Below are positions 21,902 to 41,900 of a stretch of 64,000 nt of DNA, one piece after another; the first letter of the stretch is position 1; the number at the start of each line of letters is the position of its first letter. Source of the stretch: an uncultured Eubacteriales bacterium (GTDB taxonomy: Bacteria; Bacillota; Clostridia; TANB77; CAG-508); assembly GCA_949840345.1 (NCBI GenBank), contig CATKWX010000003.1:23370-87369 (forward strand). The letters run 5' to 3'. Under the pieces are notes generated by a model. It had not been told where the DNA came from, searched no databases, and saw only the letters and a program-made list of their open reading frames with translations. A program made the translations under genes and the position numbers.

Positions 21902-24193
21902 ATGCAAAAGAAAAAACAAACTAAACCAATAAAACAAATAATAATAATAACAATAATAGCAATATTATTACTATTACTAATATTGTCAGAGGATATAATA
22001 AAATTTACCAATAAAAACAAAATAAATCTAGCAGAAAACACACCAAATGCAACAGCAATAGTAGATCCAAATATTCCACAATTATCAGCAGGAATGATAC
22101 CGATAAGATGGGAAAGTGACCATTTTATAATAACAACCCAAAACGATCCTAAATGGTATGACTACAAAAACGGAAAGCCAGCATATATAATGCTAAACGA
22201 TGGATATTACCAAAGCGAATTAATACGAGGAATAACAGATGATCAACTAATGTCAAACGCCGTAGGAAACGACGCTCTTGTTATTCCGAAGGTACCAAAC
22301 AATAATCCAACCATACTAATGTGGATACCTCGATTTGCAGTAAATGACGAAACAAATGAGATACAATACATAAAAAATACAGAAGCAATAGAAGGAAATT
22401 GGACAATACCAGAAATGTTCACTTACAAGCAAGAAGCCGAGACTTCTCCAGACTTCCTATTAACAGGAATATGGCTAGAAAAAGATGTAGATACAAACAT
22501 TACAACTAAAATAAATCAAATGAACAGTGAAGAAGGCATATATGGATTTATAAAAAACACAATTGTTGTTTCATCAAACCAAACAATTCAAAACACAATC
22601 CAAGACTATATTGCAAATACCGTAGGGGCTCATGATTGCGCTCTAGATGACCCAACCAACCCAAATCGTGTAATCCTAAAAATAATAAACCAAAATAACC
22701 AAGAACCAATAAAAGCAAAGGCAATTTTAGATGTTAATACTATGGAAATAACAATAAATATTACTTATTCTAAAAATAAAATAACAAAAATAGAAGATGC
22801 AAGAGGAAATATATTAAGCGAAAATTCAATTACTGCTGTAGATAGAGATATACCTAGCAATGGTACATATCATTATATAATAACAGATGAACTAGGCAAT
22901 AAAAAGAATTTAAGTGTAAAAGTAAATATAACAAGTACAATAACATACAATATAAATGGAGGAACAAAGGCAGTTGCAAGTATTACTGCAGGATATGGAG
23001 AGACAATTGAAATGCCTATTCCAGAAAGGAAATATATTGTAAGCTATAATACAGGAGGAAATGGATCAATACCTAGCACAAGTGCAGAATATGAATTTAA
23101 TGGATGGTATACACAAGCAATTGACGGGGAGAAAAGAGAATATACAACAATGCCAAAAAATAACCAAACTTTATATGCTCAATGGACCGCTAAAGGAGTA
23201 AGTTTACCAAACTTTCCAAAAGAAGATTACTTAGGAAATTGGTATTTAAATAATGCATTAACTACTATTGTTGGTCGTGTAGGAGATGAGTATATACCAA
23301 CAAAAAATATTACACTATATGCTGGATATAAATCAGGAATTTATGCATTCTATTATGATGATAGAACATTAGCATTTAACACAGTAAATTCTGGAATTGA
23401 AGGAAAAACTGCAAAATTTTCGTATGGAGAAATATCTAATACGCATTTAACAGGTGATAATGCTCCTTGGGGTTATTATTATGTCGATAGAGTTGTTTTT
23501 CTCGATGTTATTACTCCAAAATATACATCGTATTGGTTTACAGGAAGCAATTTTAAAGAAATAGATACTAGATACATAAGGACAAATAATGTAACAGATA
23601 TGAAAGGAATGTTTGAAAGTTGCAGATATCTTAAAAGTATAGATTTAAGCAGATGGAATACAAGTAAAGTAACGGATATGAGTTGGATGTTTTATTACTG
23701 TAATGATTTAACAAGTTTGGATTTAAGTAATTTTAATACAAGTAATGTTACGGATATGACATATATGTTTGGAGATTGTGATGAATTAACAAGTCTAAAT
23801 ATAAGTAGTTTCAATACAAGTAGAGTAACAGATATGAGTTGGATGTTTCAAGAATGTAGGAAGTTAACAACTTTAGATTTGAGTAATTTTAATACAATCA
23901 ATGTTACCAATATGAGAGGTATGTTTTATCTTTGTAATAATCTAACAAGCCTAAATTTAAAAAGCTTTAATACAAGCAAAGTGACAAGTATGCTTGAAAT
24001 GTTTTATATGTGTACTTCTTTAACAAGCTTAGATTTAAGTAGTTTTAATACAAATAAAGTAACTAATATGGGTAGTATGTTTAAATATTGTTCTAACTTA
24101 AAAACAATATATGTAGGGGCATATTGGAATGTTCCTAGTGGTACTAAAGAGATGTTTTATAGTTGTGGCACAAGTACTACAACAATAAAATAA
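21902..24193 (+). CDS. Surface protein with N-terminal signal anchor, InlB B-repeat (Flg_new) domain and C-terminal DUF285/BspA-type leucine-rich repeats
   Basis: 763-aa ORF with GGAGG RBS. Seven repeats of the form NTSxVTxMxxMFxxCxxLTSLDLSxF. Confidence 0.85.
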   Translation: MQKKKQTKPIKQIIIITIIAILLLLLILSEDIIKFTNKNKINLAENTPNATAIVDPNIPQLSAGMIPIRWESDHFIITTQNDPKWYDYKNGKPAYIMLNDGYYQSELIRGITDDQLMSNAVGNDALVIPKVPNNNPTILMWIPRFAVNDETNEIQYIKNTEAIEGNWTIPEMFTYKQEAETSPDFLLTGIWLEKDVDTNITTKINQMNSEEGIYGFIKNTIVVSSNQTIQNTIQDYIANTVGAHDCALDDPTNPNRVILKIINQNNQEPIKAKAILDVNTMEITINITYSKNKITKIEDARGNILSENSITAVDRDIPSNGTYHYIITDELGNKKNLSVKVNITSTITYNINGGTKAVASITAGYGETIEMPIPERKYIVSYNTGGNGSIPSTSAEYEFNGWYTQAIDGEKREYTTMPKNNQTLYAQWTAKGVSLPNFPKEDYLGNWYLNNALTTIVGRVGDEYIPTKNITLYAGYKSGIYAFYYDDRTLAFNTVNSGIEGKTAKFSYGEISNTHLTGDNAPWGYYYVDRVVFLDVITPKYTSYWFTGSNFKEIDTRYIRTNNVTDMKGMFESCRYLKSIDLSRWNTSKVTDMSWMFYYCNDLTSLDLSNFNTSNVTDMTYMFGDCDELTSLNISSFNTSRVTDMSWMFQECRKLTTLDLSNFNTINVTNMRGMFYLCNNLTSLNLKSFNTSKVTSMLEMFYMCTSLTSLDLSSFNTNKVTNMGSMFKYCSNLKTIYVGAYWNVPSGTKEMFYSCGTSTTTIK

Positions 24194-35652: not shown

Positions 35653-37494
35653 ATGGAACATAAACCGAAAAGATTTGGACCAGGAGCTAAAAATGCAAGA
35701 GTAGTAGAAAAGGCCAAAGATTTTAAAGGAACAACAAAAAAATTAGTAAAAGACTACTTATCACAATACAAATTGAAGTTAATAATAGTATTTATATTTG
35801 CTATTGGAAGTACTATATTTGCTATTGTAGGTCCAAAGATATTAGGAAATGCTACAACAGAAATATTTAATGGGTTAATTAGTAAAATATCTGGTGGAAG
35901 CGGAATAGATTTTGGAAAAATTGGTGGAATATTGATAACTCTGTTAATACTATATGTAATAAGCACATTTTTCTCATTAATACAAGGATTTACAATGACA
36001 CATGTAGCACAAAAACTTACATATAGATTAAGAACAGATTTAGTAAAAAAGATAAATAAGTTGCCAATGAGTTACTTTGATAAAAAAACAAATGGAGAAG
36101 TATTATCAATAATAACAAATGACATAGATACTCTAAGCCAGAACTTAAACCAAAGTGTTACACAAATTATAACATCAATATGCACAATTATAGGAATTGC
36201 AATAATGATGATTTCAATAAGTGTTCCAATGACATTAATATCAATATTAATACTACCAATTTCAGGAATAATTGTAGGTTTAATTGCTAAAAAATCTCAG
36301 AAATATTTTAAAAAGCAACAAGATTATTTAGGTCACGTAAATGGTCAAGTAGAAGAAGTTTATGGAGGGCACCTAATAGTAAAAGCATTTAATGGAGAAG
36401 AAAAAGCCATAAAGGAATTTACAAAAGCGAATGAAGAATTATATCATTCAGCTTGGAAATCTCAATTTTTATCAGGTGTAATGCATCCTATAATGAATTT
36501 TATTGGAAATGTCGGATATGTAGCAGTAGCAATACTTGGAGGATACTATGCAGCACAAGGAATAATAACAGTAGGAAACATACAGTCTTTTATACAATAC
36601 AACAAACAATTTACACAGCCGATAGGTCAAATTGCTCAAATATCTAGTATGATACAATCTATGATAGCTTCAGCAGAAAGGGTATTTGAATTTTTAGAAG
36701 AGCCAGAAGAAAGAGAAACTAATAAAGGTAATATCGATGAAAACAATATTAAAGGAAATATTGAATTTAAAAATGTCGAGTTTAAGTATGACAATTCAGA
36801 TAGAACAATAATAAATAACTTTTCAGCTGAAATTAAACAAGGACAAAAAATTGCTATAGTAGGACCAACAGGTGCTGGAAAGACTACAATTGTAAAACTT
36901 CTGATGAGATTTTATGATGTAAATAAAGGCGAAATAATAATAGATGGGCATAATATAAAAGATTTTACAAGAGGAGATTTAAGAAAACAATTTGGTATGG
37001 TGCTTCAAGACACTTGGCTATTTGGAGGAACTATAAAAGATAATATAAAATACGGAAAACCAGATGCAACACAAGCAGAAGTAATAGAAGCAGCTAAGGC
37101 AGCAAATGTACATCACTTTATAAAAACATTACCAAATTCATACGATATGGTAATAAATGAGGAAAGTACGAACATATCAGCAGGGCAAAAGCAATTGTTA
37201 ACAATAGCAAGAGTAATACTTACAGATCCTAAGATACTAATATTAGATGAAGCAACAAGCTCAATAGACACAAGAACAGAGCTACAAATACAATCAGCAA
37301 TGGATAATTTAATGAAGGGAAGAACAAGCTTCATAATAGCACATAGATTATCAACAATAAAAAATGCAGATTTAATACTAGTAATGAATAATGGAGATAT
37401 AGTAGAAAAAGGAACTCACGAAGAGTTGTTAAGTAAAAAAGGATTTTATGCAGAGTTGTATAATTCACAATTTACTGAAGAAGAAGCAGGGTAA
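35653..37494 (+). CDS. ABC transporter, fused permease-ATPase (exporter). Likely heterodimer partner of 33118..35362.
   Basis: 613 aa. Six TM segments plus NBD (GPTGAGKTT, ISAGQKQLL, ILILDEATS). Confidence 0.85.
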   Translation: MEHKPKRFGPGAKNARVVEKAKDFKGTTKKLVKDYLSQYKLKLIIVFIFAIGSTIFAIVGPKILGNATTEIFNGLISKISGGSGIDFGKIGGILITLLILYVISTFFSLIQGFTMTHVAQKLTYRLRTDLVKKINKLPMSYFDKKTNGEVLSIITNDIDTLSQNLNQSVTQIITSICTIIGIAIMMISISVPMTLISILILPISGIIVGLIAKKSQKYFKKQQDYLGHVNGQVEEVYGGHLIVKAFNGEEKAIKEFTKANEELYHSAWKSQFLSGVMHPIMNFIGNVGYVAVAILGGYYAAQGIITVGNIQSFIQYNKQFTQPIGQIAQISSMIQSMIASAERVFEFLEEPEERETNKGNIDENNIKGNIEFKNVEFKYDNSDRTIINNFSAEIKQGQKIAIVGPTGAGKTTIVKLLMRFYDVNKGEIIIDGHNIKDFTRGDLRKQFGMVLQDTWLFGGTIKDNIKYGKPDATQAEVIEAAKAANVHHFIKTLPNSYDMVINEESTNISAGQKQLLTIARVILTDPKILILDEATSSIDTRTELQIQSAMDNLMKGRTSFIIAHRLSTIKNADLILVMNNGDIVEKGTHEELLSKKGFYAELYNSQFTEEEAG

Positions 37495-37509
37495 ATGGTA
37501 GATTAGCTA

Positions 37510-37662
37510 CGAAGCGGGTGCCGAATGAATAGTGAATAGTGAATAATGAATAATTACTGTAGGGGCACACCGATGGTGTGCCCTAAATGCATATACAACG
37601 AAACATATTGCAAATGCCGTAGGGAACGACGCCCTCGTCGTTCCGCTGATATCACTGTGCCC
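37510..37662. repeat. REP/BIME-like cluster R8 with tandem heptamer tract (tgaatag/tgaataa x4), ggggcacaccgatggtgtgccc, linker, gggaacgacgccctcgtcgttcc ... cactgtgccc
   Basis: Contains aatgaatagtgaatagtgaataatgaataatt followed by two GTAG-headed palindromes. Confidence 0.75.
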
Positions 37663-37702
37663 TTATGTTTAAAAGCCAAAACAACAAATTTACATAAAGT
37701 AG

Positions 37703-37731
37703 TTGACATAATTGCAAAAATAAGTTATAAT
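37703..37731 (+). promoter_or_regulatory. Sigma-A promoter (TTGACA-17-TATAAT) upstream of the CAP-domain gene
   Basis: Consensus hexamers with 17-bp spacer. Confidence 0.5.
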
Positions 37732-37928
37732 AAAAGAGGCAACTGGGAAAGACGTAATATTAATATATAACTTTAAAATTAAGTCTAAATTTTACTAATT
37801 TTAGACTTAGCCAATTAAAATTTAATAATTTAAAATTTAAATCTTGAATAATACTAAAGAAGAGGTATAAGAATTTCACACACAAGAGAAAATATTAAAA
37901 AAATAATATTTTAAAGGAGTGAAGTTAA

Positions 37929-38457
37929 GTGAGAGTCATAAACTCTAAATTTTCAAGATTTATTTTTTATGTTTCAATCTTATTTTGTATATCATTAGTA
38001 TTTCAATGTTTTGTTTATGGAGCAAGTAATGTATCAGATGCAGACACAATAATAGATACAGAAAACACAGTATTAACAGCTGAAGAACAAGAAGTATTAA
38101 ATTTAATAAATGAACAAAGAAGACAATATGGACTTTCTGAATTAAAAGCATATGGAGAATTACAAAGAGTAGCAAAAATAAAAGCACAAGATTTAGTAAA
38201 TAATAACTATTTTTCACATACATCACCTAGCTTACGGAACACCATTTGAGATGTTACAAAAAGAAGGAGTAACATACAAATTTGCAGGAGAAAACTTAGC
38301 AGGAAATGAAACAGGAGTTAAGGCAGTAAATGCTTGGATGAATTCACCAGCACATAAAGATAACATATTAGATGAAGATTACGAATATACAGGAATATGT
38401 GTTGTAGATAGCGAAGTTTATGGGAAAGTTTATGTGCAATTATTTATGGGCGTATAA
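37929..38457 (+). CDS. Secreted CAP/SCP-domain protein (YkwD-like). +1 frameshift at 38235-38237.
   Basis: GTG start with AAGGAG RBS and a signal peptide. ...NNYFSHTSPS in one frame and ...PFEMLQKEGVTYKFAGENLAGN... in the next. Removing one base at ttaCGGaac gives the canonical SHTSPxYGTPFEM core. Confidence 0.7.
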
Positions 38458-38466
38458 AAAATCTAT

Positions 38467-38495
38467 TTGACAACATAATATATTAGTGCTATAAT
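38467..38495 (+). promoter_or_regulatory. Promoter PA1 (TTGACA-17-TATAAT) driving small RNA A1
   Basis: Perfect consensus hexamers. A near-identical ~50-bp copy lies at 38786-38830. Confidence 0.65.
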
Positions 38496-38501
38496 AATTA
38501 T

Positions 38502-38565
38502 AGCTTAAGCAGTTTATAGTGTGAATTGCTAGAGATATGTTTGACCGACATATCTCATTTTTTTT
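38502..38565 (+). ncRNA. Small RNA A1 (~64 nt), candidate type I antitoxin RNA
   Basis: Runs from PA1 to an intrinsic terminator (gagatatgt-ttgaccg-acatatctc + TTTTTTTT at 38532-38565). Segment 38515-38530 (tatagtgtgaattgct) is a direct repeat of 38685-38700, so it is complementary (15/16 with one G-U) to the start codon region of the convergent peptide mRNA. Confidence 0.55.
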
Positions 38566-38606
38566 GCAAAAATAAAGAGTGGCTGACCTTTGCCACTCTG
38601 GTATTT

Positions 38607-38687
38607 CTACCTTCTGCCTTTTCCTTTTCCCCATTGTTTGCCTAAAAGCAATACAATGACTAAAAAGATAATATCATATTTTGTCAT
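38607..38687 (-). CDS. 26-aa hydrophobic peptide MTKYDIIFLVIVLLLGKQWGKGKGRR, candidate type I toxin (Fst/Ldr-like)
   Basis: Own TTGCTT-17-TATAAT promoter. 5'UTR has UCCUUUUCU anti-SD and AGAAAGGAGGAG SD. Terminator hairpin agagtggc...gccactct (38577-38599) sits next to the convergent sRNA terminator. Confidence 0.55.
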   Translation of the reverse strand: MTKYDIIFLVIVLLLGKQWGKGKGRR

Positions 38688-38742
38688 AGTGTGAATTACT
38701 CCTCCTTTCTTTGAGATTTCCTCATAGAAAAGGATGTAATAC

Positions 38743-38771
38743 ATTATACAGCGTAATTGGCAAAAAAGCAA
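38743..38771 (-). promoter_or_regulatory. Promoter of toxin-A peptide mRNA (TTGCTT-17-TATAAT on minus strand)
   Basis: Minus-strand sequence atatgTTGCTTttttgccaattacgctgTATAATgtattac. Confidence 0.55.
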
Positions 38772-38792
38772 CATATAAATATAAAAATCTAT

Positions 38793-38821
38793 TTGACAAT
38801 ATAATATGCTAGTGCTATAAT
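38793..38821 (+). promoter_or_regulatory. Promoter PA2, duplicate of PA1, divergent from the toxin-A promoter
   Basis: TTGACA-17-TATAAT. 50-bp near-identity to 38461-38510. Confidence 0.6.
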
Positions 38822-38827
38822 AATCAT

Positions 38828-38942
38828 AGCTTAAGCAAGTAAAAAGTAAAACACAATAAAAAACTTCGTACCGCTAATACGAGGGTTCTTGCTATTTATG
38901 TAAGTTGTGAGCAAAAAAATAGGCTAAATGCCTATTTTTTCT
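38828..38942 (+). ncRNA. Candidate small RNA A2 (~110 nt) from PA2 to the bidirectional terminator at 38913-38942
   Basis: Promoter plus terminator with no ORF between. Its 5' end (agcttaagcaagt) parallels sRNA A1. Confidence 0.3.
38913..38942. terminator. Bidirectional intrinsic terminator (A-run, ataggc-taaat-gcctat, T-run) overlapping the stop codon of the 38924..43243 gene
   Basis: aaaaaaataggctaaatgcctattttttc. Confidence 0.65.
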
Positions 38943-41900
38943 TGTGTTTTTTTATCTTCTTCATTCTCACGTTCAATTGCTTTTAGTGAATTTTCTTTTT
39001 GTTTTAAGTTATCTTTTGCAACTGTCATAAGAAGTTTTATTCTGTTTGTCTGGTTTGCTTCACTTGCTCCTGGGTCATAGTCAACAGGGGCTATGTTTGC
39101 ATCTGGGAACATTTGTCTAATTGTTTTTATAACACCTTTACCAACTACGTGGTTTGGTAAACAAGCAAATGGTTGAACACAAACTATATTTGGTATATCG
39201 TTTTCTATGTATTCTATCATTTCTGCTGTTAAGAACCAGCCTTCACCAGTTTGGTTTCCGATAGATAGTACATCTTTAACCTTATCTTCTAAATGCCATA
39301 TATCACAAGGTGGTAGGTAGTTTTTCTTTGAGCTTGCAAGAGCTTTTCTTACATCTTTTTCTAATATATCTATTAGTTTTATTGCTACTTTAGAAATTTT
39401 TGAAGAAGTTTTGTTTGTATTTAATAACTTATTAAAGGTTATTTTATGTGTAGCCATAAATTTAACAAATCCCATAAAATCAGGAAGTATAACTTCTGCA
39501 CCTTCATCTTCTAGAAGGTTTGCAACAAAGTTGTTTCCAAATGGATGATATTTAATTAAAACTTCACCAACTATACCAACTTTAGGTTTTTTAACTGAAG
39601 TATCTAACTCGATTTTTTCGAAGTCATTTACAATATCATAAATACTTTGTTTAAATTGCTTATTAGTAGACTTTCTAACTAGTGATTTACATTTTTCCAT
39701 CCATTCATTATAAAGTTTTTCAGTCTCGCCTTTATTTATCTCATAAGCTCTATTTTTAGTTAGCATTTTTTGTAATAAATCACCATATATTACGCCTTTT
39801 AGTAAGCCTTCAAAAAGACCTATGCTTAGCTTAAATCCTGGCATTTTTTCCATACCAACAACATTAAATGATATAACAGGAATATTTGGAAAACCTGCAT
39901 CTTTTAAGGCCTTTCTAATAAATCCAATGTAGTTAGTTGCACGGCAACCTCCACCTGTTTGGCTCATTATTAAAGCTGTTTTATTTAAATCATATTCACC
40001 TGATTCTAATGCTTCTATCATTTGACCTGTTACTAATATAGATGGATAACACGCATCATTATTTACATATTTTAAACCAGTTTCAACAGTATGAGGAGTA
40101 CACTCTCTTAAAAGTTTTACTTTATATCCGCAAGCTTGTAAAACAGATTCTAATAATTCAAAATGTACTGGTGCCATTTGTGGTACTAAAATTGTATAAT
40201 CGTCTCTCATTTCTTTAGTAAATATAACTTTATTTTGTTCATAATTACCAGGATTTTGGTTTGGCTTTGGAGCTTCTTTTAAACGTTTATTAATACTTGC
40301 AAGTAATGAACGAATACGAATTCTTACAGCACCTAAATTATTTACTTCATCGATTTTAATTAGTGTATACATTTTGTCATAACTTGAAAGTATTTCTTCA
40401 ACTTGGTCTGTTGTAACTGCATCTACACCACAACCAAAAGAATTTAATTGTACTAATTCTAAATTTTTATTTTTCCCTACAACTTCTGCTGCAGCATAAA
40501 GCCTAGCATGGAACATCCATTGATCAACAACTCTAATAGGCCTTTTTGCTTCACCTAAATGTGCAATAGAGTCTTCAGATAACACACATAACCCAAGGCT
40601 TGTAATAAGAGTGTCGATACCGTGATTTATTTCTGGGTCAACGTGATATGGTCTTCCTGATAGTACAATACCTTTTTGATTATTTTCTTCTATGTATTTT
40701 AATATTTCTTCACCTTTTTTATGAACGTCATCTCTAAATTTTTGGTATTCTTCTTCTGCCTTTATTGCAGCGTTTGTAAGTTCTTTCTTATTAAAGTTAT
40801 AACATTTAAATTCATCTAGTTCTAATATTTTCTTAACAAGGTTTTTAGTATCCATTGGTAAGAAAGGATTTATAAACTTAATATCTTTTAATTCCTCAAC
40901 ATTGTTTTTTATAACTTCTGAATAAGATATAACAATAGGGCAATTGTAGTGGTTATCTGCCTTTTCATATTCCTTACGTGAATATGGAATACAAGGATAA
41001 AATATGGTTTTAATACCTTGGTCAATTAGGCTAATTATATGACCGTGTACAAGTTTTGCAGGATAACAAACAGATTCAGAAGGCATAGATTCCATACCTT
41101 TTTCATAAGTTTTCCTATTACTTTTTTCAGATAAAACAACTCTAAAGCCTAAATTTGTAAGGAAGGTAAACCAAAATGGATAATCTTCGTACATATTTAA
41201 AACCCTAGGTATACCAATTGTTCCTCTAGCAGCTTTTTCTTCAGATAAAGGTTCATAATTAAATAATCTATTAAACTTATATTGATACATATTAGGTAAT
41301 TTTGAATTTTCTGTAACATTTCCTGAGCCTCTCTCGCATCTATTTCCGGAAATGAACTTCTTTCCATTGCTAAATGCATTAACTGTAAGAAGACAGTTGT
41401 TTTCACAACGACCACACCTAACATGGGTAACTTTAACATTAACACTATCTAAATCTTTTAAACTAGTTATTGTAGATACATATGTCATGTCCATATTAGC
41501 TTCATATTGTTCTTTTGAAAGCAATGCCATACCATAAGCACCCATTAATCCTGCAATATTAGGACGAATAACTTCTTTTCCAACAGTTAATTCAAATGCA
41601 CGAAGTACTGCATCATTATAGAAAGTACCACCTTGAACTACTATATGATTTCCCAAAGTTTCAACGTCTCTTACCTTCATAACTTTTTGAATAGCATTTT
41701 TAACAACAGAGTAAGAAAGTCCTGCAGAAATATCTCCAACAGAATAGCCTTCTTTTTGTGATTGCTTTATTTTTGAATTCATAAATACTGTACAACGTGA
41801 GCCTAAAGGTGCTGGTCTTCTAGACTGTAAAGCTTCTTCAACAAATTCACTAATAGAAATATTTAGGCTACTTGCAAAAGTTTGTATAAATGAACCACAA

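Follow-up and report, generated by a model that had tools for sequence, protein, structure and literature searches.

A probable par-like type I toxin-antitoxin family of gut Clostridia with separate terminators and complementary terminator loops

Two loci in a 64-kb window of contig CATKWX010000003.1 from an uncultured Eubacteriales bacterium (the window being the whole stretch of 64,000 nucleotides (nt) that was analysed, with a G+C content of 29.5%) each combine a short small RNA (sRNA) gene with a convergent gene for a small peptide. These loci, A and B, are probably par-like type I toxin-antitoxin (TA)-type modules and members of a large, previously unannotated family of low-GC gut Clostridia. 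In regard to locus A itself, we have little doubt that its sRNA, A1, forms a specific duplex with the start region of a small open reading frame (ORF) that is translated. The locus appears to work like par, yet it is not a member of the Fst family. An earlier sequence-only reading of this DNA had proposed locus A as a candidate type I TA system from its convergent promoters and a repeat reaching over the start codon; complementarity between the loops of the two separate terminators is a feature that was not part of it.

Results

Architecture of the two loci

The anatomy and homology of the loci, the coding status of the ORF, the co-varying complementarity at two sites and the asymmetry of promoter strength were all computed, and the parts of both loci are given in Table 1. 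In locus A, the two plus-strand promoters described in the sequence-only reading as perfect and duplicated both match the consensus at 12 of 12 positions and lie inside a duplication of 55 nt (38457-38511 and 38783-38837, 93% identical). The three terminators are located where that reading had placed them, and so are the 26-codon ORF, the GGAGG (38705-38701 on the minus strand, nine nt 5' of the ATG) and the sequence complementary to the Shine-Dalgarno (SD) region, UCCUUUUC. The ORF list also shows an in-frame extension to 55 amino acids (aa) from 38774, whose ATG lies upstream of the promoter; the start was set at 38687 because of the family comparison described below, which backs the position assumed earlier. 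The mRNA promoter is present as described, but its -35 box is weak, matching the consensus at only three of six positions. A full-consensus sRNA promoter facing an mRNA promoter with a weak -35 box fits an antitoxin that is made in excess.

The ends of A1 were set from the -10 box (5') and from the U-run (3'), and the RNA folds into two hairpins (minimum free energy (MFE) -20.7, z -5.8). It is homologous to sRNA B1 of locus B and to the sRNAs of related loci. The mRNA would start at about 38737 and have a length of about 170 nt, so that the sizes of ~65 and ~200 nt claimed before become ~63 and ~170 nt. The two transcripts do not overlap, and their ends are 3-5 nt apart in the window. The leader hairpin of locus A has the inner stem UGAG/CUCA and the loop GAAAU, with a predicted MFE of -12.3 (z -2.1), compared to -10.2 (z -2.4) in locus B.

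Locus B is a true paralogue of locus A. As the sequence-only reading stated, it has the same architecture, with the parts in the same order and with a start-site repeat of its own; the terminator stem of B1 (GAGAUAUG/CAUAUCUC) is identical to that of A1, and the ORF is called as a gene in a public assembly. A global MAFFT alignment of the two loci was poor, and element-wise pairwise alignment was used instead.

Table 1. Positions of the features of loci A and B in the window
Feature	Position	Strand	Details
sRNA A1 promoter	38467-38495	+	TTGACA-17-TATAAT, TG-extended, 12/12 consensus
sRNA A1, ~63 nt, putative antitoxin	38502-38565	+	
A1 segment complementary to the translation initiation region, UAUAGUGUGAAUUGCU	38515-38530	+	direct repeat of 38685-38700
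A1 intrinsic terminator	38532-38556	+	10-pair hairpin, then U-run
A1 terminator loop UUUGACCGA	38540-38548	+	putative kissing core UGACC 38542-38546
Peptide mRNA intrinsic terminator	38599-38576	-	8-pair hairpin; loop AAAGGUCA, GGUCA complementary to A1 UGACC
26-codon ORF MTKYDIIFLVIVLLLGKQWGKGKGRR + stop, putative toxin	38687->38607	-	
mRNA 5' leader hairpin	38737-38701	-	anti-SD UCCUUUUC 38734-38727, predicted to pair with GAAAGGA in the SD region
Peptide mRNA promoter	38771-38743	-	-35 TTGCTT 38771-38766, spacer 17 nt, -10 TATAAT 38748-38743
Second promoter P2	38793-38821	+	TTGACA-17-TATAAT, 12/12
RNA A2	~38828-38946	+	hairpin 38864-38884, terminator 38914-38940
Locus B, whole	43507-43975		same order of parts as locus A
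Locus B sRNA promoter	43523-43551	+	
sRNA B1	~43558-43623	+	anti-initiation segment 43566-43583, terminator 43594-43616, loop core UCGCUG 43603-43608
Locus B mRNA terminator	43661-43641	-	loop ACAGCGA
Locus B 30-codon ORF MTSFELIWRLIILLLLNNSNDKNQDETKKD	43760-43668	-	convergent to B1
Locus B leader hairpin	43800-43771	-	same leader TCCTTTTC..AGGAAATCT..GAAAGGAGG
Locus B mRNA promoter	43836-43808	-	TTGCAT 43836-43831, TATAAT 43813-43808
Locus B second promoter and RNA B2	43866-43968	+	terminator 43934-43961, loop GUGGUAG

Pairing at the start site in loci A and B

The two copies of the locus A repeat, TATAGTGTGAATTGCT at 38515-38530 and CATAGTGTGAATTACT at 38685-38700, are identical at 14 of 16 positions. 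The predicted RNA duplex covers mRNA positions -13 to +3, as anticipated, and is fully paired through 14 Watson-Crick and two G-U pairs, where the earlier count had been 15 of 16 with one G-U. The 15-mer core is found at these two sites only in the 64-kb window, and the repeat is not part of a larger dispersed one. Its exact core of 12 nt is equalled or exceeded in about 1% of mismatched-locus controls, and 15 of 100 shuffled sequences held at least two matches to the 15-mer when two mismatches were allowed. The repeat of locus B is exact over 18 nt (43566-43583 and 43744-43761) and its sequence is unlike that of locus A; each of the two repeats occurs exactly twice.

Duplex prediction, proposed in the sequence-only reading as a check, came out in favour of the pairing, with -33.9 kcal/mol for A1 and its own mRNA (z -2.8; 2 of 200 shuffles were equally good) and -38.9 kcal/mol for B1 and the mRNA of locus B (z -4.7). 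Neither of the cross pairs was significant, A1 giving -24.8 kcal/mol with the mRNA of locus B (z -0.9) and B1 giving -22.7 kcal/mol with that of locus A (z +0.8).

A family of related loci

Relatives were sought with a leader pattern (CCTTTTC-N2-4-AGGAAA-N4-10-AAAGGAGG) in one genome per species, for 185,579 species, which yielded at least 118 stretches; the family counts given below are among the matches listed. At least about 105 related loci have a start codon (ATG, GTG or TTG) at a distance of 7-12 nt from the SD and an ORF of 21-44 codons, so the search for further leaders with short ORFs, another of the proposed checks, was productive. Nearly all of them are found in uncultured Clostridia or Clostridium, in metagenome-assembled genomes (MAGs) from animal and human gut, the hosts being humans, mice, rabbits, ruminants and chickens. 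About a dozen matches belong to unrelated phyla; they lack an ORF and appear to be fortuitous. A profile search of 5.8 billion proteins returned 447 clusters, all of them unnamed ('hypothetical protein' at most) and none with a Pfam domain.

The RNA layout is conserved in the relatives. There, the sRNA gene consists of a near-consensus promoter (TTGACA...TATACT/TATAAT), a conserved 5' sequence AGCUUAAG, a variable segment and a terminator. The strict promoter motif is nearly confined to a convergent position at +230 to +310 relative to the start codon, where about 80 of about 100 loci have it. The mRNA promoter has the family consensus TTGTnn-17-TATAAT, with a conserved weak -35 box, and lies 7-8 nt before the leader hairpin, the motif of which is present in all related loci with AAAG/CUUU, UGAG/CUCA or UAG/CUA as the inner stem. 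Most loci have a repeat of the translation initiation region (TIR), situated 79-110 nt beyond the stop codon.

When the start region was compared with the 350 nt downstream, the longest exact repeat shared by the two had a median length of about 10-11 nt; the same measure gave 7 nt for the upstream control and 7-8 nt when TIRs were combined with other loci. In a set of 90 unique loci, the predicted duplex between the 5' part of the sRNA and its own TIR has a mean energy of -30.7 kcal/mol, against -14.7 +/- 4.9 kcal/mol for non-cognate pairs; the cognate pair ranks first in 49% of these loci and among the top 5% in 84%. With an ungapped score that permits G-U pairs, the contrast between downstream regions and upstream controls was weak in DNA as rich in A+T as this. 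Paired mRNA positions in the family extend from about -10 to +24. The repeat varies between loci and is matched within each locus, which is the outcome expected under selection for RNA pairing. A conserved palindrome, AGCUUAAG, makes up the first ~8 nt of the sRNA in the window (38502-38509) as well as in most related loci. Predicted duplexes often reach codons 6-9 (Leu-Ile-Trp-Arg), which could explain the conservation of AGCUUAAG.

Furthermore, a second site of complementarity is located in the terminators. When the apical regions of unique hairpin pairs were compared, the loop of the sRNA terminator was complementary to that of the mRNA terminator over a run of at least 5 nt in 46 of 47 pairs and of at least 6 nt in 42, while only 30 of 1918 non-cognate pairs (1.6%) had a run of 5 nt or more. 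About 30 different loop cores are present, such as GUAGUGA, UUGACCA, UAGGGA, AUUGCGA and GUGGUAG, and they vary while the stems stay of an 'sRNA type' or an 'mRNA type'. The cores in the window are UGACC/GGUCA in locus A and UCGCUG/CAGCGA in locus B. In loci with this split layout the two hairpins are separate, 11-29 nt apart, and the transcripts do not overlap.

The family ORF is, as judged by its codons, a coding one. The N-terminal residues follow the conserved pattern M-x-S-[FY]-[DE]-L-[IV]-W-[RH]-L-[IV]-x-L-L-L, with Leu6, Trp8 and Leu10 nearly invariant, and the tails vary by subfamily. Over codons 2-15 of 78 distinct sequences, the entropy at the first, second and third codon positions is 1.03, 0.72 and 1.41, respectively; codons of Ser3 switch between TCN and AGY, and the Leu codon family switches as well. 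The locus A peptide is one of a small 'DLIFFLI' subgroup, and that of locus B falls into the main group of 29-30 aa.

Positions of family members in the genome vary, and several MAGs hold two or more modules of different subfamilies. One of the related loci (L084) consists of two complete modules in tandem, 456 nt apart, and another (L049) has two tandem sRNA genes, indicating that modules form arrays. Members of the 43-aa subfamily (MNNAELVWRLVELLLQKEKD..., L127-L132) are always located just downstream of a DUF6076 gene, in surroundings that include a tyrosine integrase, an HTH_17 excisionase-like gene and a Mob_Pre relaxase, and the elements carrying them are likely integrative mobilizable elements. 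One 31-aa member, on the other hand, lies between core metabolic genes. Carriage by phages was represented by a single match in 2.9 million viral contigs. Conserved synteny was also considered and rejected, as none of the other listed loci adjoins homologues of the BcrAD-like, SpmA/B or CAP genes.

Properties of the peptides

The peptide of locus A has an apolar run of 10 residues (IIFLVIVLLL) followed by a tail with a charge of +5, and that of locus B an apolar run of 7 residues and a polar tail; tails in the family are mostly neutral to acidic. The helical hydrophobic moment over residues 3-18 is 0.29-0.47 in family representatives, 0.12 in locus A and 0.11 in Fst. Judged by these sequence properties, the locus A peptide would be the most toxin-like of the main family. 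Neither the two window peptides nor the family representatives had a credible match in Pfam or NCBIfam, even at E<=10, or in PHROGs and PADLOC, in agreement with the earlier view that the peptide lies outside the named families; the few Pfam matches at E>0.005 were scattered and unrelated. At the RNA level, a cmscan of the whole window with 4227 Rfam families gave tRNA alone at gathering thresholds, and for positions 37400-44200 at E<=10 only chance-level matches to terminator-like models.

The second promoters

The sequence-only reading also included the second plus-strand promoter and its RNA in the module of locus A. The promoter and a terminated RNA, A2, do exist. However, A2 and A1 have no more in common than the promoter and the ~16 nt transcribed first, the body of A2 is without a homologue among the 118 related loci listed, and an upstream second promoter is not a family feature, so that A2 is probably a remnant or an orphan outside the conserved module. 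The promoter of locus B is likewise duplicated, the copy leading into a second short RNA, B2. The terminator of B2 is 93-100% identical to sRNA terminators of other loci (e.g., L044 and L108), and its loop, GUGGUAG, represents a specificity class other than that of locus B. No cognate mRNA for B2 was found in the 64-kb window, and its target, if any, must therefore be elsewhere in the genome; it would carry a TIR around AUGACCUC and a terminator loop with UACCAC. B2 appears to be a well-formed orphan antitoxin-like sRNA that may still be active.

A role of A2 and B2 as second antitoxins was ruled out, since neither has significant predicted pairing with either mRNA, the arrangement is not a family feature, A2 has no homologue and B2 is of another class. 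In the simplest reading, both are leftovers of neighbouring modules without peptide genes, A2 decayed and B2 an orphan, because the sRNA gene of the next module in a tandem would sit exactly there. The A2 terminator overlaps the last codons and the stop of a convergent gene of 1439 aa (BcrAD/BadFG-DUF2229). The terminator is flanked by an A-run and a T-run, and therefore probably terminates both A2 and this gene, in which case A2 would be antisense to the last ~20 nt of the 1439-aa gene mRNA.

Discussion

Proposed mechanism

In regard to the mechanism, we infer the order of the binding steps, the translational repression, the stabilities of the two RNAs and the toxicity of the peptide from the layout described above. 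According to this model, the weak promoter would give the ~170-nt mRNA, in which the hairpin at the 5' end buries a part of the SD, while the strong convergent promoter would give the ~63-nt sRNA. The first contact would be a loop-loop kiss between the terminator hairpin of the sRNA and the separate terminator hairpin of the mRNA. The 5' part of the sRNA would then zip onto the mRNA from just past the SD across the start codon, over positions -13 to +3 in locus A, -1 to +16 in locus B and up to +24 in relatives, and the duplex would block ribosome binding. If the sRNA is not replenished, the 26-aa peptide would be made; it has a hydrophobic helix at the N-terminus and, in the case of locus A, a tail that is cationic, and would presumably act at the membrane.

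Tentatively, and with considerable doubt, the family may also be seen as a naturally diversified two-key system of RNA addressing, in which a kissing-loop code on the two separate terminators and a start-site duplex would together provide at least 30 mutually orthogonal specificities. It would control a new class of short amphipathic, mostly non-transmembrane effectors on chromosomes and integrative mobilizable elements, with orphan sRNAs such as B2 serving as stand-alone anti-addiction immunity to modules that arrive on incoming elements.

Comparison with known systems

The closest likeness is found with the par locus of pAD1 in Enterococcus faecalis (Fst/RNA I-RNA II). Par-like loci are described as having convergent promoters and a shared bidirectional terminator with complementary loops that start a kissing complex, together with two direct repeats, DRa and DRb, through which the initiation site is sequestered, a stem-loop that covers the SD at the 5' end and a 5' helix that stabilises the mRNA (Weaver 2020, PMC7472228). 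In function, the window loci appear to have every one of these par features, the split of the terminator excepted. The YUNR U-turn motif of the interacting loop is not found in all par homologues (Weaver 2020, PMC7472228). Likeness extends to the convergent promoters, the short sRNA, an mRNA of ~170-230 nt and a peptide of ~30 aa, to direct DNA repeats that give complementarity over the start codon, to terminator loops able to kiss, to the occurrence of mobile-element and chromosomal copies, and perhaps to the SD-sequestering stem-loop that is predicted at the 5' extremity of the mRNA (PMC7472228). The presence of copies at both kinds of location matches the pattern of par-like and other type I systems.

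Differences from par are also evident. The window loci and most relatives have two terminators of their own with different stems, in which the loops alone are complementary, over 5 nt in locus A and 6 nt in locus B, and not over whole stem-loops; they also have one continuous repeat instead of DRa and DRb. The par/Fst logic claimed in the sequence-only reading consequently holds for the convergence and for the TIR pairing, which co-varies across the family, and not for the shared terminator region, as two separate hairpins are present. In comparison with Fst, peptides of the window type lack the PXXXG motif and any match to the Fst models of Pfam and NCBIfam, have a Trp within the N-terminal helix, and are mostly not of transmembrane grade.

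Four relatives (L021, L023, L037 and L105) with the same leader have a single shared bidirectional terminator as in par, and an exact anti-TIR repeat of 11-16 nt located 36-50 nt from the stop; their peptides are unrelated, strongly hydrophobic and 21-30 aa long (e.g., MSNFMKILALFLVYIILKNFD). These loci represent an ancestral-looking par layout in the same chassis, and split terminators are therefore a variation on that layout, built on a single type of RNA chassis. As the loops alone stayed complementary after the split, it can be argued that they are the working contact.

Other type I systems share fewer of these traits. In SprA1/SprA1AS of Staphylococcus aureus, the antisense RNA represses translation and overlaps the 3' end of SprA1, and the toxin PepA1 is a transmembrane peptide of the Fst family. 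The window loci resemble it in the predicted TIR pairing through a region that does not overlap the toxin gene, and in a probable action in trans although the RNA is encoded next door; they differ in having genes without any overlap and a peptide of another kind. In bsrG/SR4 of Bacillus subtilis, the RNAs overlap in cis at their 3' ends and the sRNA mainly drives decay and refolding of the mRNA. The antitoxin terminator loop joins the first loop-loop contact with the toxin mRNA, which is similar to the model proposed here, and a repeat at the TIR is not known to be used.

Modules from a host of the same class are those of Clostridioides difficile, such as CD2517.1-RCd8, CD2907.1-RCd9 and CD0956.2-RCd10, which have a long complementary overlap that suggests a degradation mechanism, and toxins of 50-53 aa with Lys-rich tails (Soutourina 2019, PMC6563280). 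The Clostridia host, the convergent genes, a small peptide that carries charge at its C-terminus and an association with mobile elements are common to both, whereas the leader hairpin, the TIR repeat and the kissing-loop layout are absent from the C. difficile modules. The type I systems that these reviews list for Clostridia comprise the overlapping modules, Fst-like sequences in C. bolteae and C. asparagiforme, and a TxpA-like sequence in C. bolteae (PMC7472228, PMC6563280). The general traits of a type I TA system, a small ORF of <60 aa with its own SD and an adjacent sRNA with locus-specific complementarity to the TIR, are present in the window loci. Searches of the full-text literature found no description of the family defined by this leader.

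Alternative explanations

Several observations weigh against a TA role of the two loci. The apolar run of the locus A peptide agrees with its earlier description as hydrophobic, but a stretch of transmembrane grade is not present. The best 19-residue Kyte-Doolittle mean is 1.25 for locus A and 1.20 for locus B, where Fst scores 2.24 on the same scale. A mean of at least 1.6 is reached by only 4 of 90 family peptides, which is atypical for type I toxins, the PXXXG motif of Fst is found in none of these 90, and the 43-aa and 31-aa subfamilies have amphipathic helices with long polar or acidic tails. In regard to the RNAs, covariation in the leader is nearly nil, its outer stem being fixed by the search pattern and its sequence near-invariant, the anti-TIR segment of A1 is partly buried inside a 10-bp hairpin of that RNA, and the contacts of locus A are the weakest in the family, with a loop core of 5 bp and an exact repeat core of 12 nt. 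It is conceivable, though in our view rather unlikely, that the same wiring controls a peptide that is no toxin, such as an sRNA-gated regulatory or structural small protein whose amphipathic helix binds a partner or the membrane surface. Most family peptides have only 7-8 uninterrupted apolar residues and a conserved Asp5/Arg9(/Glu12/Lys16) stripe on one helical face, hydrophobic moments of the family representatives tested exceed the 0.11 of Fst, the 31-aa subfamily has heptad-like spacing (...LIWILLQKIEKLEEEL...), and no toxin family of Pfam, NCBIfam or PADLOC matches such a peptide. On the other hand, the same leader chassis carries classic hydrophobic peptides of 21-30 aa in a true par layout, and the peptide of locus A itself has the 10-residue apolar run and the +5 tail. 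It is, moreover, typical of type I TA systems to occur as multicopy paralogues whose address codes exclude each other, to leave orphan sRNAs, to be carried by integrative mobilizable elements and to combine a strong promoter for the sRNA with a weak one for the mRNA.

The remaining alternatives concern translation and the repeat itself. A non-coding antisense pair, for example an sRNA with its sponge, in which the peptide would be an accident of AT-rich DNA, could be imagined for an ORF that is very short and whose first 8 codons are also constrained by sRNA pairing. We regard it as very improbable, as a strong SD is found at a fixed spacing of 7-12 nt in about 100 loci and the reading frame is kept despite variation in length, with Leu6/Trp8/Leu10 near-invariant, the highest entropy at the third position and switching of Ser codons. 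Finally, the repeat and the hairpins could be due to chance or to a dispersed repeat element that has nothing to do with gene regulation. Within the window, taken by itself, the 12-nt exact core of locus A is only moderately unlikely, and 15 of 100 shuffles have at least two matches at two mismatches. Yet the repeats of both loci occur exactly twice each, and about 100 loci keep them in the same place and orientation, with two independent co-varying sites, which leaves this explanation scarcely any probability; it is refuted as far as sequence comparison reaches.

Significance

A par-like TA-type reading of loci A and B would add a large unnamed family, with at least about 105 genomic loci and 447 peptide clusters, to the systems of this kind. 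Its split terminators represent a natural experiment on par, in which selection kept the loops alone complementary, providing independent evolutionary support for the view that the loop-loop kiss is the functional contact. The ~30 co-varying loop codes and the locus-specific start duplexes amount to a catalogue of orthogonal RNA-RNA pairs usable in RNA engineering. If amphipathic peptides without a transmembrane character prove toxic, the range of type I toxins would also be widened.

Other features of the window

Genes of the window are also present in other assemblies of uncultured bacteria, e.g., GCA_948901475.1. A CAP-domain gene at 37929-38457 is represented by two adjacent ORFs (106 and 68 aa) with a frameshift near 38220-38250. 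The identical split is found in two other public assemblies, and it is therefore probably a genuine pseudogene or a programmed frameshift and not a sequencing error. The plus strand also holds a single ORF of 7027 codons at 91-21174.

An intergenic repeat that is dispersed over the window, composed of ATATTGCAAA-N4-GTAGGG(G) and then a G+C-rich hairpin, is present in exact copies on the plus strand at 22608, 26799, 35585, 37605, 43276, 45524 and 50328, and with one mismatch at 48079. At up to three mismatches there are 12 matches, compared to 1.2 expected by chance. All exact and near-exact copies share one orientation, and those at 37605 and 43276 flank both loci.

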